A DNA stretch of 28,690 nucleotides from Myxococcota bacterium (GCA_040752415.1 JBFMGU010000136.1:1-28690), one strand, 5' to 3'; positions 208 through 25,190 are shown, numbered from the stretch's first letter. Numbers and translations: made by a program. The notes: generated by a model not told the origin, from the sequence alone.

Positions 208-395
208 GCTCAATCTCATTGGCGGGAACCAGCTCAATCTCATTGGCGGGAACCAGCTCAATCTCATTGGCGGGAACCAGCTCAATCTCATTGGCGGGAA
301 CCAGCTCAATCTCATTGGCGGGAACCAGCTCAATCTCATTGGCGGGAACCAGCTCTCATTGGCGGGAATCAGCTCAATCTCATTGGCGGGAACCA
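208..395 (+). repeat. Tandem array of eight copies of GCTCAATCTCATTGGCGGGAACCA (24 bp)
   Basis: Six identical units at 208-351, one 20-bp unit with a 4-bp deletion and a C>T change (352-371), and one more perfect unit (372-395). No spacers. Confidence 0.97.
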
Positions 396-460
396 GGAGC
401 GTCGTGGCTCGTGTTCGCCCTCGTACACCGGGGCCGGCCCGGCGTGTTACTCGTCATCGG

Positions 461-17186: not shown

Positions 17187-17801
17187 ATGATCAGGAAGAA
17201 GGCAGCGCGGAGAACGTCGACGGAGCAGGCTGCGAGCCGCACCAACCGCAGCCAGTTTGTCATCCTGGGAATCCTCTCCATCCGTCCCGCCAGCGGGTAC
17301 GACATCCAGAAGGCCATTCAATCCAGCACCTCGTTCTTCTGGACCGAGAGCTACGGGCAGATCTACCCGACGCTGGAACGGCTGCTGGAGCAGGGACTGG
17401 TGCGTGCGCGGAAGGATGTCGGGTCAGGTCGTCGTCGGACCACCTACAGCATCACCGCGGAGGGGCGGCGCGCGTTCGACGCGTGGATTCGCGCTCCGTA
17501 CCAGCCCACCGTCGAGCGGAATGAGCTGCTCCTCAAGGTGTTCTTCGGACGTCTGGCCGAACCCGCGGTCACCGCGGCCCACTTGCGTCGAGCGCGCCAG
17601 GAGGCGGAGGTGTACCTGCATACGCTGCAGGGCATCGCGGAGCAGTTGAAGAAGCTGCTGCCCACGCGCAAGGAACGCATCCATACCGCCGCCACCGTGA
17701 AGCTCGGAATCGCCGCTGCGCGGGCGCAGATGGCGTGGTGTGACGAGGTGCTGTCGGAGCTGGAAGAAGAGTTTGGCAAGCGCTTGTTGCGGGAGAAGTA
17801 G
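17187..17801 (+). CDS. PadR family transcriptional regulator (AphA-like C-terminal domain)
   Basis: SGYDI, FFWTESYGQIYPTL..L, RRTTYSITAEGR, RNELLLKVFF. Confidence 0.93.
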   Translation: MIRKKAARRTSTEQAASRTNRSQFVILGILSIRPASGYDIQKAIQSSTSFFWTESYGQIYPTLERLLEQGLVRARKDVGSGRRRTTYSITAEGRRAFDAWIRAPYQPTVERNELLLKVFFGRLAEPAVTAAHLRRARQEAEVYLHTLQGIAEQLKKLLPTRKERIHTAATVKLGIAAARAQMAWCDEVLSELEEEFGKRLLREK

Positions 17802-17938
17802 TACGGTGGCCAGAAGTCCTTTCGCACGACGAGAGCTCCGTTCAGCCGGAGATTCATCCGCGGTGCCGGCATCCGACGAAAGCGGTCCGAGCGGCGCCCG
17901 CACCTCTGGGAGTGCGGTCTGCAATACCGCTTTGCATT

Positions 17939-18713
17939 GGGCGTGGCTCTCATCCTGACGCCTCATCCCGACGACGGTCCGCCAGTAGCGCCGTGCCGCT
18001 TCCTTGGGTGACCCGCGCTCCCTGCCAATGAGATTGGGTGCGGCTCATTTGAGACGACGCTTGGCCGCAGGCGTCAGCACATCCGCGTGGCCGGCAATGG
18101 TCAGCCCGGGGCCGCGCCGTCACGACGACGGATAAACCGCACGCGATGCGACCGGACCGACGGGTTCAACGCGACGGAGGACCGGCCAGCAATGTAGGGG
18201 CTGCCCGTTGCCGCTAGCGCGTGAGCGGTGAAGGTGGCCGGCAATGGTCAGCCCCGGGGCGGCGCGGTCATGACGACGGAAAACCGGTCCATGCATGCCC
18301 CGTTCACGCTGTCGAAGCGACGGCGAAGCGGTCAGCCCCTACATTGCTGGCCATTCTCCGTCGTCATGAAACGCTGGGCCGACGTTGCACGCCAGTTTCC
18401 GTCGTCATGAACCACTCGGCCCGGGGCTGACCATTGCCGGCCACCTTCACCGCTCACGCGCTACCGGCAACGGGCAGCCCCTACATTGCTGGCCGGTCCT
18501 CCGTCGCGTTGAATCGGTCGGTCCGGTCGCATTGCGTGCTGTTATCCGTCGTCATGACGGCGCGGCCCCGGGCTGACCATTGCCGGCCACCTGCGGATGT
18601 GCTGACGCCTGCGGCGAAGCGTCGTCTCAAATGAGCCGCACCCAATCTCATTGGCAGGGACTTCGCTACCGGAGGGCCCTCGTCGGCAAGGCGTCAGGAT
18701 GAGAGCCACACCT
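17939..18713. mobile_element. 775-bp non-autonomous foldback / MITE-like element
   Basis: Terminal inverted repeats match at 23 of 25 positions. Exact 8-bp direct repeat TTTGCATT at 17931-17938 and 18714-18721. Inner inverted arms 18019-~18258 and ~18420-18660 are about 95% identical by manual alignment. No credible ORF. Confidence 0.72.
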
Positions 18714-18794
18714 TTTGCATTCGGTCCTCCTGGCTCACCGGACCTTCCCCGCGTGTGAGAAACGTTGGCCATCTGCTTGCGCGTTGGAGGCACG

Positions 18795-20309
18795 TCACCA
18801 GCTCACCAGCACCCAACTCGTGGCGCTGACCGTGGGCGGAATCCCGAGCGTGTCGTGAGCTTGCACGGTGACGGCGGTCTTCAATCCCACCGTCTCCCGC
18901 GCCAGGAGCTGCCCCCGGACACGCGCGGGACCGCGGATCGCGATGTCGTCACCGGAGAGGACCGCGCCCTCCAACGTCACATCCGCCCCAGCGCAGACGT
19001 CGCCGCTCGAGAACACGCTGCCCAGGACCTTCGCGCCGTCCTGGATGCACACCCCAGGGTCGTCGCAGTCAAAGCCTTGCAGCGGGCTGCTGCACACGCG
19101 CCACGACGACGGCATGGGCCGCTCCGCGCCACACTCGTGGGCGGAGCACCGCATCCGTGAAGTCAGCTGACCGCGGACTTCTCCCGCCACCACGACCGTG
19201 GCGCAGTCGACGTCCCCCTCGACAATGCCCTGCACCCTGCAATGTCCCGCGGAACGGACCACCGTCCGAGCCCGGAACGTTCCGTCGATGTCGACGTCAC
19301 CGTCGGATAGCAGCGTGATGGTGGTCGGCGTGGGGCAGGACCTCAGGCGAGCGGGGGCGGCGCGCCTTCCGGTCAAGAACACGACGGGTGCGTCCCGCCC
19401 GTTGCACGGCGCCCGCAGCTCCACGTCGTCATCCTTCTGCACGATCCATGGCACGTCGGTCGGGCTCCAACAGGGGTCACGTGGGTCGGGTCCTGAGGCA
19501 GCGGCACTCCTCTCCGCGCACGCCCAGCGCCTCGTTCCCTCCCTCGTCACCAGCAGGACCTCCGACGACGGAAGGATGTCCGCGCTCCACCACGGCCGCT
19601 CCGCCACGGATACGTTGAGGAACATGGGTGGGTCGTGGCGTTTTGGCGGCGTGCATGTCGGGGAGGCGCAGGCCGATGCACAGGAATCGCAGCCGCACAG
19701 CGCGGGTGCACCACCGTCGGGCTGGGCAAGTGACGACGTCATAAGCAATGCATCGGACCCGCACAACGCCACCGCGCTCTCCACCATGACCTGCACCGGC
19801 GCGGCAATCACGGCGCGCGGAGGTGGGAAGACACGGTGGGCCACCGGCACCTGTGCGCGGGCCCCCTCCAGTGCCAGCGCCGCGTCACCCTGGATGCCGA
19901 GTGGATAAAGCCCCACCACGCGCACCACGTTGTCCGCATCCGCGCGGATGAGGCAGCCCAGCTGCGCATCCAGCGACACCAGGTGAAACGGTGCATCCCC
20001 CGCGCCCAGCGAGGGGAGTGACGCCGAGGGGGCCTGCTCCCACCACGTCTGGCGGGTCAGCTCGTGAAGCGCGTCCGGGAGGGAACGCCCCTGCTGCAGC
20101 TGGATGTGGAGCTGCGCGTCGATCTTGTCCAGGCACCGGCGTGCGGCTCGCCACGCCAGGCGCTTGGGAACCACCACGTCGGGATCATCGCCCGTGATGA
20201 CGTGCTCGGACGTCCCCAGGCCCACCAGCCACCAACCCACGCCCAGAGTCACGGCGAGAAGCAGGAGCAGCGGTACGCAACCGGAGGTGCCATCCCGTCG
20301 ACGTGCCAT
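18795..20309 (-). CDS. Hypothetical Cys-rich protein with an N-terminal membrane anchor and C-terminal beta-helix-like repeats
   Basis: MARRRDGTSG followed by a hydrophobic helix; C-terminal repeats such as GDVDIDG, VQGIVEGDV, VLGSVFSSGDV, LEGAVLSGDDI. ATG 20342 is an alternative start. Confidence 0.6.
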   Translation of the reverse strand: MARRRDGTSGCVPLLLLLAVTLGVGWWLVGLGTSEHVITGDDPDVVVPKRLAWRAARRCLDKIDAQLHIQLQQGRSLPDALHELTRQTWWEQAPSASLPSLGAGDAPFHLVSLDAQLGCLIRADADNVVRVVGLYPLGIQGDAALALEGARAQVPVAHRVFPPPRAVIAAPVQVMVESAVALCGSDALLMTSSLAQPDGGAPALCGCDSCASACASPTCTPPKRHDPPMFLNVSVAERPWWSADILPSSEVLLVTREGTRRWACAERSAAASGPDPRDPCWSPTDVPWIVQKDDDVELRAPCNGRDAPVVFLTGRRAAPARLRSCPTPTTITLLSDGDVDIDGTFRARTVVRSAGHCRVQGIVEGDVDCATVVVAGEVRGQLTSRMRCSAHECGAERPMPSSWRVCSSPLQGFDCDDPGVCIQDGAKVLGSVFSSGDVCAGADVTLEGAVLSGDDIAIRGPARVRGQLLARETVGLKTAVTVQAHDTLGIPPTVSATSWVLVSW

Positions 20310-20638
20310 CCGCGCTCCCGCGTCCCGACGGGAATGTACCATGCCAGGAGCTGCGTCAGAACAAGGCGTTCACTGGCAAGATGGACGTCGTGAGCGGGCC
20401 ACGACCTGGAGTGCGGCGGGCCCGCGGCGCCCTGGTCAGCGCCGAGCGGGTGGCAACCTCGTCAGCGGTCGACGGTCGCCGAGGCGTCGACGCACCGGCG
20501 CGATCAGGTTGGGGACCGTTGCACACGTTGATAACGCGCTTGGCGCTGACCAGGGCGGCGACGGGCCGCCGCACTCCGGGTTGTGGTCCGCTCGAGAGTG
20601 TCACGGACGCGATGGACATCTTGTTCTGACGCTGCCCC

Positions 20639-22339
20639 TCAGACGGTCCGGGCGGGCCTGGGCAGCACCACCTGCAAGGCCAGGCCCAGCACCACGACGA
20701 GCGCGCACCCGATCACGTTGTACCAGAGGTACCCCACGTCGGAGAACAGGAACAGCGCAACCACGGCGGACTGCGAGAGGACCGCCGCCACGAACACCGC
20801 GTGGCCCGCCACCCGACGGAAGAAGAACGCCACCAGGAAGATGCCGAGCACGGTGCCGTAGAAGATGGACCCCAGGATGTTCACCGCCTGGATCAGGTTG
20901 TCCAGCAACGACGCCATGGCGGCGAAACCAATGGCCACCAGGCCCCAGAAGATGGTGAACCCCTTGGAGGCCATGAGCACGTGCCGGTCACTGGCGTCGC
21001 GGCGGAGGAGGCGCTTGTAGAAGTCCACCGTCGTCGTGGCGCCCAGCGCGCTGAGCTCGCTGGCAATGGAGCTCATGGCCGCCGCCAGGATCACCGCAAT
21101 CAACAATCCAAAGAGGCCGCTGGGAAGCCAGTTCTTCACGAAAGTGATGAAGATGTAATCCGAGTCCTTGGTTTCCGCTCCCGGCAGCGCCTTGCCCACC
21201 ACCGTCTTGGCCTCCTTGCGGATGGTGCCCGCCTCCCGCGCGTATTCCAGGAGCTTCCGTCGAGCGCTCTCCTCACCCACCACGTCCGCCGACGAGCGCG
21301 CGGCAAGATAACGGTCCACCTCCGCGTGCTTCTCCGCCTGCACCCGTGCCCAACGGGCCTCCAGGGTCTCAAGCTCCGGGGCCTGCGCGGTGGCCTGGAC
21401 GCGCGCACGCAGGGAGTCATTGAAGAGCAGCGGCGGGGTGTTGAACTGGTAGAAAACGAATACCAGGACGCCCACGAACAGGATCATGAACTGCATGGGA
21501 ATCTTCAGCACGCCGTTGAAGAGCAATCCCAGGCGGCTCTCGGTGATCGACTTTCCCGAGAGATAGCGGCCCACCTGGGACTGGTCGGTGCCGAAGTAGG
21601 AGAGCGCGAGGAACAACCCGCCCGTGATGCCGGACCAGAAGTTGTAGCGGTCCTTCACGTGGAAGTCGAAGCTCACCACGTTGAGTCGCCCGAATGCGCC
21701 CGCCACGTCGACGGCGTGGGAGAACGTGACGTGCTCCGGGAGACGCCAGACGATCACGAACGCGGCGACCACCATGCCGCCCATCATCACCACCATCTGC
21801 TGCTTCTGTGTCTGACTCACCGCCTTGGAGCCACCCCCGACGGTGTAGAGGATGACCAGGCCACCCATGGCAATCACGGTGGGCTCCAGCGGCCAGCCCA
21901 GGATGGTGGAGAGGATGATGGCCGGCGCATAGAGCGTGATTCCAGATGCCAATCCGCGCTGCACCAGGAAGAGGAACGCACCGAACAGACGCGTCTTCAG
22001 GTCAAAGCGTGACTCCAGGTACTCGTACGCGGTGACGACGTTGAGCCGATAGTAGATCGGCACGAACACCGCGCTGATGATCACCATGGCAATGGGCAGT
22101 CCGAAATAGAATTGCACAAAGCGCATGCCGTCCTCGTACGCCTGGCCGGGGACGGAGAGGAACGTGATGGCGCTGGCCTGCGTGGCCATGACCGAGAGGC
22201 CGATGGTGGTCCATGGCAGCTCACGCTGGCCGCGCAGGTACTCGTCGGCGGTGGCGTTGGCGTGGCGCGTCTTCAGGATGCCCCACAGCACAATGGAAGC
22301 GGTGGTCCCCACCAGGACCAGCCAGTCGAGCGCCGTCAC
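20639..22339 (-). CDS. Sodium:solute symporter (SSS/SLC5 family)
   Basis: LSVMATQASAITFLSVPG, TAYEYLESRF, YTVGGGSKAV, GTDQSQVGRYL, AAAMSS; many transmembrane segments. Confidence 0.95.
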   Translation of the reverse strand: MTALDWLVLVGTTASIVLWGILKTRHANATADEYLRGQRELPWTTIGLSVMATQASAITFLSVPGQAYEDGMRFVQFYFGLPIAMVIISAVFVPIYYRLNVVTAYEYLESRFDLKTRLFGAFLFLVQRGLASGITLYAPAIILSTILGWPLEPTVIAMGGLVILYTVGGGSKAVSQTQKQQMVVMMGGMVVAAFVIVWRLPEHVTFSHAVDVAGAFGRLNVVSFDFHVKDRYNFWSGITGGLFLALSYFGTDQSQVGRYLSGKSITESRLGLLFNGVLKIPMQFMILFVGVLVFVFYQFNTPPLLFNDSLRARVQATAQAPELETLEARWARVQAEKHAEVDRYLAARSSADVVGEESARRKLLEYAREAGTIRKEAKTVVGKALPGAETKDSDYIFITFVKNWLPSGLFGLLIAVILAAAMSSIASELSALGATTTVDFYKRLLRRDASDRHVLMASKGFTIFWGLVAIGFAAMASLLDNLIQAVNILGSIFYGTVLGIFLVAFFFRRVAGHAVFVAAVLSQSAVVALFLFSDVGYLWYNVIGCALVVVLGLALQVVLPRPARTV

Positions 22340-24956: not shown

Positions 24957-25104
24957 GGTGCGCGCACCCTAACAAGGTGGCCGCGGTCGACGGAACGCCA
25001 AAGTGCGGGACCCAGCGTGGCCCCGGACGCAACCGTGATCACTGTCCTCCTGAGACGTGATTGCCTTCGGATTGGGTTTCACAAGGACATGCGCGCTTCT
25101 TCGG

Positions 25105-25190
25105 GGAGCCCAGAGCGTCGTTCCAGGAGACCGCGCCCAATCTCATTGGCGGAGCCCAGTGCGACGTCGTACGGGAGCCGCACCCAACTC
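25105..25190 (+). repeat. Two degenerate ~46-bp tandem copies of the CCAATCTCATTGG repeat family
   Basis: CCAGGAGACCGCGCCCAATCTCATTGGCGG closely matches 196-225; GAGCCGCACCCAA (25175-25187) matches 18633-18645. Confidence 0.75.

Follow-up and report, generated by a model that had tools for sequence, protein, structure and literature searches.

A nested composite MITE, probably with ISKra4-family ends, in the genome of a Myxococcota bacterium

We propose that a 775-bp non-coding element in the genome of a Myxococcota bacterium is, most probably, a composite, nested non-autonomous transposon (MITE) with ends of the ISKra4 family, and thus of DDE type within the Mutator superfamily. Together with its flanking duplications it occupies positions 17931-18721 of the window, by which we mean the whole stretch of 28,690 nucleotides that was analysed (GCA_040752415.1 JBFMGU010000136.1:1-28690). 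The window lies on contig C42 of a host assembly of 11.0 Mb in 520 contigs, with 68.9% G+C and 96.8% completeness.

Architecture and genomic setting

The element lies between two copies of TTTGCATT (17931-17938 and 18714-18721), an exact 8-bp direct repeat that extends to 9 bp if one mismatch is allowed. Its terminal inverted repeats, 17939-17963 and the reverse complement of 18689-18713, are identical at 23/25 positions. An earlier note on this DNA had described a non-coding 775-bp element with these termini and this exact flanking duplication, and the sequence reads as claimed; among six submitted internal ORFs of 57-83 aa, none matched a Pfam family. An outer shell, here called A, encloses an inner foldback element, B, and the parts are arranged as follows.

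17914-17930 (+): terminator-like hairpin downstream of the PadR-family gene; a 5-bp stem, then TTTGCATT, the T-rich tail being the target 8-mer
17931-17938 (no strand): left target-site duplication TTTGCATT, 8/8 with 18714-18721
17939-18035 (+): left arm of the outer A shell; 25-nt tip at 17939-17963, A-specific stretch, degenerate inner shell, palindrome half
18022-18035 (in the left A arm): first REP-like palindrome half, CTGCCAATGAGATT
18036-18643 (no strand): inner B foldback element, 608 bp, with ISKra4-type tips at 18036-18060 and 18619-18643
18087-18380 (+): left B arm, with one 147-bp unit at 18087-18233 and a second in tandem at 18234 to ~18380; direct-repeat spacing 146-148, unit orientation ++--
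18283-18395 (no strand): asymmetric centre between the long inverted arms; a 113-nt gap with partial units and a 41-nt tandem pair
18396-18590 (-): right B arm, with its 147-bp units inverted
18644-18713 (-): right arm of the outer A shell; palindrome half, A-specific stretch from which 25 nt present in the left arm are deleted, 25-nt tip at 18689-18713
18644-18657 (in the right A arm): second REP-like palindrome half, AATCTCATTGGCAG
18714-18721 (no strand): right target-site duplication TTTGCATT, 8/8 with the left copy

The symmetry continues inward from the tips. A repeat finder returned inner inverted arms of 68 nt (99%), 49 nt (98%) and 148 nt (93%), together with direct repeats spaced 146-148 nt apart, and alignment of the arms pairs 18019-18290 with 18660-18395 at ~95%, giving an inner palindrome of roughly 270 nt. 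When the two 400-nt halves are compared, 322 of 368 aligned positions are identical. The inner arms, put at about 95% identity around an asymmetric centre in the earlier note, therefore hold at that value on re-alignment, with the centre at 18283-18395; the weaker symmetry described beyond the tips is likewise present, interrupted by a 25-nt indel that separates the left and right outer arms, whose outermost 80-97 nt are more diverged. The motif CCAATGAGATTGG stands at 18025-18037 and CCAATCTCATTGG at 18642-18654. How many 147-bp units the interior holds is a provisional count, taken from a short-read-type assembly.

As also described earlier, the element sits in the gap between convergent genes, which encode a PadR-family regulator (17187-17801, +) and a bactofilin-domain protein (18795-20342, -). 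Folded as single-stranded DNA it reaches -437 kcal/mol against -183 +/- 4.7 for 20 shuffles (z = -54). The sole match in Rfam was to a plant miRNA-precursor model at 81 bits against a threshold of 268, which we dismiss as a sub-threshold artefact of the long hairpin. Lack of SbcCD was considered as a possible reason why such palindromes are tolerated; models of SbcD and SbcC found only C110:1286-1561 (34.7 against 77.65 bits) and C486:40315-40458 (28.5 against 478.5 bits), on different contigs and far below cut-off. Two public sequencing runs, each holding a tenth of the sampled words, yielded contigs of 210 nt and 243 nt, both on the coding flanks and none over the element or its joints. Thirty relatives that were searched had no DNA in common with the locus or the element, and a metagenome scan with the neighbouring 515-aa protein returned a single relative at 33% identity.

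Sibling copies carry different target duplications

Within its own genome the element has matches at 164 places. The 18-nt core of the A tip occurs at 44 places with up to three substitutions, and for 20 of these we judge from the flanks that they are genuine ends of the A family. Searching with a strict pattern at either tip gave 42 candidate end pairs, 60-6000 bp apart, and flanking octamers agreed at 8/8 positions in four of them, namely the four true A pairs. Since the best non-A candidate reached 5/8 and a control register (the next 8 bases outward) never exceeded 4/8, the flanking 8-bp repeat is not a matter of chance. The duplicated octamers all differ: TTTGCATT in the window, TTTTGAAA in C6, TTTCGTTT in C94 and TTTTGTTT in C317. 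The earlier note had proposed looking for other copies with different duplications, and that search succeeded, with a perfect 8-bp repeat in 4/4 strict A copies and four different octamers. Two further A-type pairs, spotted by eye in C479 and C103, are without a duplication.

Across all shell types, 18 end pairs were curated. Nine have exact direct repeats of 8 or 9 nt, one agrees at 8/9, three have none, and the remaining five, including the window's B element, C71 and C479, have inverted flanks that match at 9/9 or 8/9 as reverse complements. One 278-bp sibling with a shell of type G splits the left palindrome hairpin of a Y1 gene on contig C24 and has a 9/9 duplication, AATGAGATT.

The canonical A copies, in C94 and C6, are 336-337 bp long and consist of A tips, one REP-like palindrome per side (CTGCCAAT-GAG-ATTGGCAG) and a core. 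The A copy of C6 interrupts a B terminus precisely at TTTTGAAA, an octamer that is single in intact B termini, and from these alignments we read the site, like the hairpin split by the 278-bp sibling, as a paralogous empty site. Nesting of this kind, with an A element at TTTTGAAA in a terminus of B or G type, was seen at two loci, C6:26474-26840 and C106:20301-20446, whose outer flanks differ; either the whole composite was copied or the locus is present twice in the assembly. End to end, the window's composite is ~78% similar to that of C479, which suggests that the composite may have spread as one unit, and the two may also have formed independently.

Ends shared with ISKra4-family insertion sequences

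Of the DDE families that might supply a transposase, PF01610 (ISL3), PF00872 (IS256) and PF12762 (IS1595) have no match in the host genome. Two DDE_Tnp_1 loci, one rve locus and an IS66 fragment (C101) are present, none with the tip nearby. A candidate IS end at several contig ends proved to be another abundant, gene-less repeat of ~290 bp. A copy of such a ~290-bp repeat, different from the element, lies in the window at 20393-20646, between the bactofilin-domain gene and an SSF transporter gene; BLAST places it at well over 100 loci of the genome, and many of these are contig ends.

The link to a transposase came from other phyla. In a scan of one genome per species, the 24-nt tip pattern was found at 54 loci of other phyla, most of them ~30 nt from a contig end, a placement that would be that of the ends of multi-copy ISs. 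The metagenome-assembled genomes (MAGs) that bear the tip are Syntrophobacter-like, Chromatiaceae, Blastocatellia, Gemmatimonadales, Calditrichaceae, alphaproteobacterial, cyanobacterial and others. At locus L040, a complete element of 1674 bp, bounded on either side by the tip and with its right flank cut by the contig end, contains a single ORF of 523 aa. The encoded protein scores 338.5 bits on the NCBIfam model NF033572, 'ISKra4 family transposase' (cut-off 205); its one Pfam match, to UPF0236, is weak, and it hits neither PF01610 nor PF00872. Relatives of this transposase were recovered by tblastn at 18 of the 54 tip loci (30-100% identity, the near-full-length ones 42-56%). Four more complete autonomous elements have both flanks, bringing the range of autonomous sizes to 1658-1865 bp; two of these four have 9/9 duplications (AAAGCCTTT and AAATGATTT), one agrees at 6/9 and one has none.

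When 16 ends were aligned, the tips of the window's B element proved identical at 24/25 positions to the left inverted repeat of an autonomous IS (L027). The A tips agree with the autonomous inverted repeats over their first 11-13 positions and in a GACGA box downstream, and because the match is limited to those first 11-13 bases, we infer rather than observe that the A tips are mobilised by the ISKra4 family. Among Myxococcota genomes, 6/151 have ISKra4-family genes over the cut-off and 31/151 at E <= 0.001; the tip stands convincingly beside such a gene in three of ten loci examined (L081, L083 and L089), and in L090 at the last bases only. In the host assembly itself no ISKra4-family transposase was found, either with the HMM NF033572 (0/18 candidates) or by tblastn, a result about an assembly that is binned, fragmented and 96.8% complete, and so not evidence that the organism lacks the gene. 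As a side observation, the ~24-nt tip is nearly unchanged across many phyla (L024-L077) while the linked transposases are 42-56% identical, which is unusually strong conservation for IS ends.

In the account of Guerillot et al. (2014, PMC3942029), ISKra4 falls in the p-MULT 4 group of the Mutator-related prokaryotic DDE transposases and belongs to the same superfamily as IS256. The prokaryotic elements related to Mutator are described there as having inverted repeats of 18-39 bp in which the terminal C is conserved, and as duplicating 8 or 9 bp of target in direct orientation, and the duplicated target of the related ISH6 family is given as AANATNTT (PMC3942029). The earlier note had read the element as a product of DDE transposition, with ISL3 and IS256 as examples. 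Mobility of the DDE type is borne out by the inverted tips and by the differing duplications of the siblings; the examples are not, as PF01610 and PF00872 are without a match and the ends match ISKra4-family ISs. An autonomous transposase with the same ends, which the note had suggested seeking, was absent from searches of the element's own genome (HMM and tblastn) and present in other phyla for the B tips, at 24/25.

The inner foldback element and stacked shells

Besides A, further shell types were named G, E, D and B, and all open with the 11-nt tip GGGYGYGGCTC; in most cases the 14 nt after it are shared as well. The 147-bp unit from which the B arms are built gave 127 BLAST pieces in 41 loci, 24 of which are at contig ends. 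Of the 17 internal loci, 14 are arranged head-to-head, with one to four plus-strand units followed by one to four minus-strand units (2-4 per arm in all of them except C6); the reverse order was seen in none, and the other three are fragments. The variable number of units and the head-to-head layout together identify B as a foldback family. In the window's B copy there are two units in each arm, together with partial units at the asymmetric centre.

The two arms of the window's B element are 94% alike and at most 91% identical to any other copy. Arm homogenisation as a general rule was considered and rejected, as the arms of other elements are not each other's best match (0.58-0.80). In the window's B element, and in three other B copies, the flanks are inverted and not direct; the inner part of the window's element therefore did not arise by a straightforward recent insertion.

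Each 147-bp unit has a copy of ACGACG, the inner box of the inverted repeats, which hardly varies among ISKra4-type ends of different phyla. By analogy with eukaryotic Mutator and Foldback elements, we tentatively suggest a bolder reading, which we hold to be rather doubtful: B may be a true bacterial foldback-transposon family in which the 147-bp units (2-4 per arm), each with its ACGACG box, would form arrays for transposase binding, and the system might grow by targeting the AT-rich loop of its own REP-like hairpins, producing Russian-doll stacks that hairpin-driven deletion would trim into ever longer palindromes.

Elsewhere in the window, at 25100-25185 (-), two shell ends are stacked (tip, palindrome half, second tip) with no core and no partner end, forming a solo half of a nested element.

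A REP-like palindrome and its Y1 genes

The REP-like palindrome, CCAAT-GAG-ATTGG, belongs to a second repeat system of this genome. The sequence CCAATNNNATTGG has 111 copies where about 2.2 are expected, a ~50-fold excess, and 99 of the copies have a GAG or CTC loop. The host genome encodes two Y1_Tnp genes, in C24 and C12. The gene at C24:5889-6292 is bracketed by inverted copies of the palindrome, each of which is followed by another conserved stem (GTCCTGC ... GCAGGAC) whose loop varies, and the blocks that flank it also make up the cores of G, E and A elements. These cores are gene-less doublets of the Y1 flanks and are therefore REPIN-like. In the C24 protein an HVH motif and a downstream Tyr are readable, which we take to be the catalytic HUH/Tyr pair. 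The two Y1 proteins score 25.4 and 33.9 bits on the RAYT model (cut-off 80) and 51.7 and 55.2 bits on the IS200 model (cut-off 55), the C24 protein having the 25.4 and the 51.7. The second Y1 gene (C12:36-377) stands at a contig start and is followed by two copies of a different, G+C-rich hairpin pair; it may belong to another REP family.

The window's element retains two 14-nt palindrome halves, at the joints between the outer shell and B; it has neither the conserved core blocks nor the inverted palindrome doublet, which is present in its siblings. Two proposals of the earlier note are affected. That of a foldback transposon carrying the REP-like family stands as to a non-autonomous foldback element of DDE type and falls as to its cargo, which amounts to two 14-nt halves and no REP or REPIN unit. 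The other, a REPIN captured between transposon ends, fails for the window's copy and describes its siblings in C94, C6 and C317.

Near the start of the window (213-400) there are ~8 tandem 24-nt units (CAATCTCATTGGCGGGAACCAGCT), each with the second palindrome half, after a G-like shell end at 150-211.

Target choice and a proposed history

Of 74 shell-like termini, 36 abut a palindrome half. Among the other 38, at least three of which look like chance matches, an A or T stands at -1 in 33 and at -2 in 34, in a genome of 69% G+C. The copy in C317 lies in a T-tract after a G+C stem of 7-8 bp, similar to the terminator-tail target of the window. Palindrome loops account for roughly a fifth of the 508 AAWNNNWTT sites, yet take about half of the insertions. 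Because they are already about a fifth of such sites, a preference for AT-rich 9-mers may suffice for the pile-up; structure-specific targeting of hairpins was set aside, the excess being too weak to tell structure from sequence preference.

We propose that a transposase supplied in trans would bind the ~25-bp tips, that a staggered cut would be made in an AT-rich target of 8-9 bp and the element joined to it, and that gap repair would duplicate the target. For the window's copy, the target would have been the T-rich tail of the terminator-like hairpin behind the PadR-family gene. The nested structure would then have been built up in steps. An A-family MITE would first have enclosed a REPIN-like core, as the copies in C94 and C6 still do, and a B foldback MITE would subsequently have inserted into the AT-rich loop of one REP-like hairpin of that A copy. 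An element in C317 has an A shell with its core kept, B in the right palindrome and an 8-bp direct repeat, and is presumed, from its arrangement, to represent an earlier stage of the window's composite. Finally, the palindromic core would have been lost, for which the simplest route would be slippage from one 5-nt repeat to the other (CCAAT and ATTGG), promoted by the hairpin; B would then stand between hairpin halves that are inverted to each other. Inverted flanks could also have arisen by conversion of a 3-nt mismatch in the long hairpin or by recombination through the Y1 enzyme. As the outer ends would still be a valid substrate, the whole composite could move as one unit.

Alternative explanations

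Four other readings were weighed against a nested MITE with ISKra4-family ends. It is most unlikely that the element is a REPIN- or BIME-type repeat moved by the genome's Y1 (IS200/RAYT-like) transposase, its flanking 8-mer being chance or a property of the target. Such a repeat would explain the ~50-fold over-representation of the palindrome, its inversion around the C24 Y1 gene and the recurrence of the same blocks as sibling cores; but 10 of the 18 end pairs have 8-9-nt duplications of differing sequence, and the Y1 transposition of IS200/IS605 is not known to duplicate its target. The window's copy, moreover, has two 14-nt hairpin halves without a core, and on the RAYT model both Y1 proteins stay below the cut-off of 80 bits, at 25 and 34. 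The ends could instead be those of another DDE family (ISL3, IS256, IS66, IS1595 or other) whose match to the ISKra4 tip is coincidental, a reading we regard as comparably improbable. An 8-bp duplication is also produced by several other DDE families, the A tip agrees with the autonomous inverted repeats over 11-13 bases only, and there is an IS66-like fragment at C101. However, the inner B tips agree at 24/25, the same 11-nt tip opens all shell types, ISL3, IS256 and IS1595 have no match in the genome, and no transposase locus that was found has the tips nearby.

That the foldback is only apparent, the result of a chimeric assembly path through a high-copy repeat, has very little probability. 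The 147-bp units exceed the usual assembly word length, and 24 of their 41 loci are at contig ends, so assemblers do break there. Yet the contig extends 17.9 kb and 10 kb past the element, a precise 8-bp duplication marks its ends as in three other copies, and 14 of the 17 internal loci have the same head-to-head layout; because the window's arms differ from all other copies, being at most 91% identical to any of them, a specific assembly path exists. Slight, too, is the chance that the host keeps the element for its structure, for instance as a two-way terminator or a transcript stabiliser, the transposon features recording its origin only. Its position between convergent genes, directly after a terminator-like hairpin, and its extremely stable fold would agree with such a role, although AT-rich targets are rare in a genome of 69% G+C, and the tails of terminators are simply where they occur.

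Comparison with known systems

With ISKra4-family ISs the element has in common the inverted repeats (24/25 for the inner ones and the 11-nt tip for all shells), duplications of 8-9 bp and AT-rich targets. It differs from them in having no transposase gene, in its length (775 bp against 1.66-1.87 kb), in its long arms built of repeats and in being nested. Part of the group is described as targeting promoter-proximal sites (PMC3942029), whereas the window's family inserts into the loops of hairpins and the tails of terminators.

That ISs insert into REP palindromes has been described (Tobes & Pareja 2006, PMC1525189). The element resembles MITEs and ISs associated with REP palindromes in that a shell of DDE type encloses or enters the palindrome of a second (Y1) system; the window's shell differs in being of ISKra4 type, its layers are stacked like Russian dolls and its REP core has been lost. 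Resemblance to the REPIN-RAYT system as presented by Bertels & Rainey (2011, PMC3116915) lies in a single Y1 gene with inverted palindrome flanks and in dispersed gene-less doublets. Unlike that system, the Y1 proteins here are nearer to the IS200 model, most doublets are in DDE-type shells with duplications, and the window's element has no doublet.

Among eukaryotic transposons, the arms of Foldback and long-TIR Mutator-like elements (MULEs) contain a variable number of tandem subrepeats. Eukaryotic MULEs are also reported to make 8-9-bp repeats (PMC3942029). The head-to-head arms of tandem units and the 8-9-bp duplications resemble these elements by analogy only; the host is bacterial, the scale is far smaller and homology is not shown. 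A literature search of titles and abstract openings returned no description of ISKra4-derived MITEs, of MITEs in Myxococcota or of REPINs or RAYTs in myxobacteria.

Implications

The element is of an ordinary kind; what distinguishes it is the stacked architecture, the foldback arms made of tandem units and the conservation of the tip across phyla. It gives a concrete and testable partner family, of ISKra4 type within the Mutator superfamily, to many of the orphan repeats that fragment this 11-Mb assembly. For annotation, such elements should be masked as MITEs and not recorded as regulatory hairpins or CRISPR-like arrays. In this G+C-rich genome, two mobile systems are interlocked: a Y1 gene with its palindromes, and a DDE family that targets the AT-rich loops of those palindromes.
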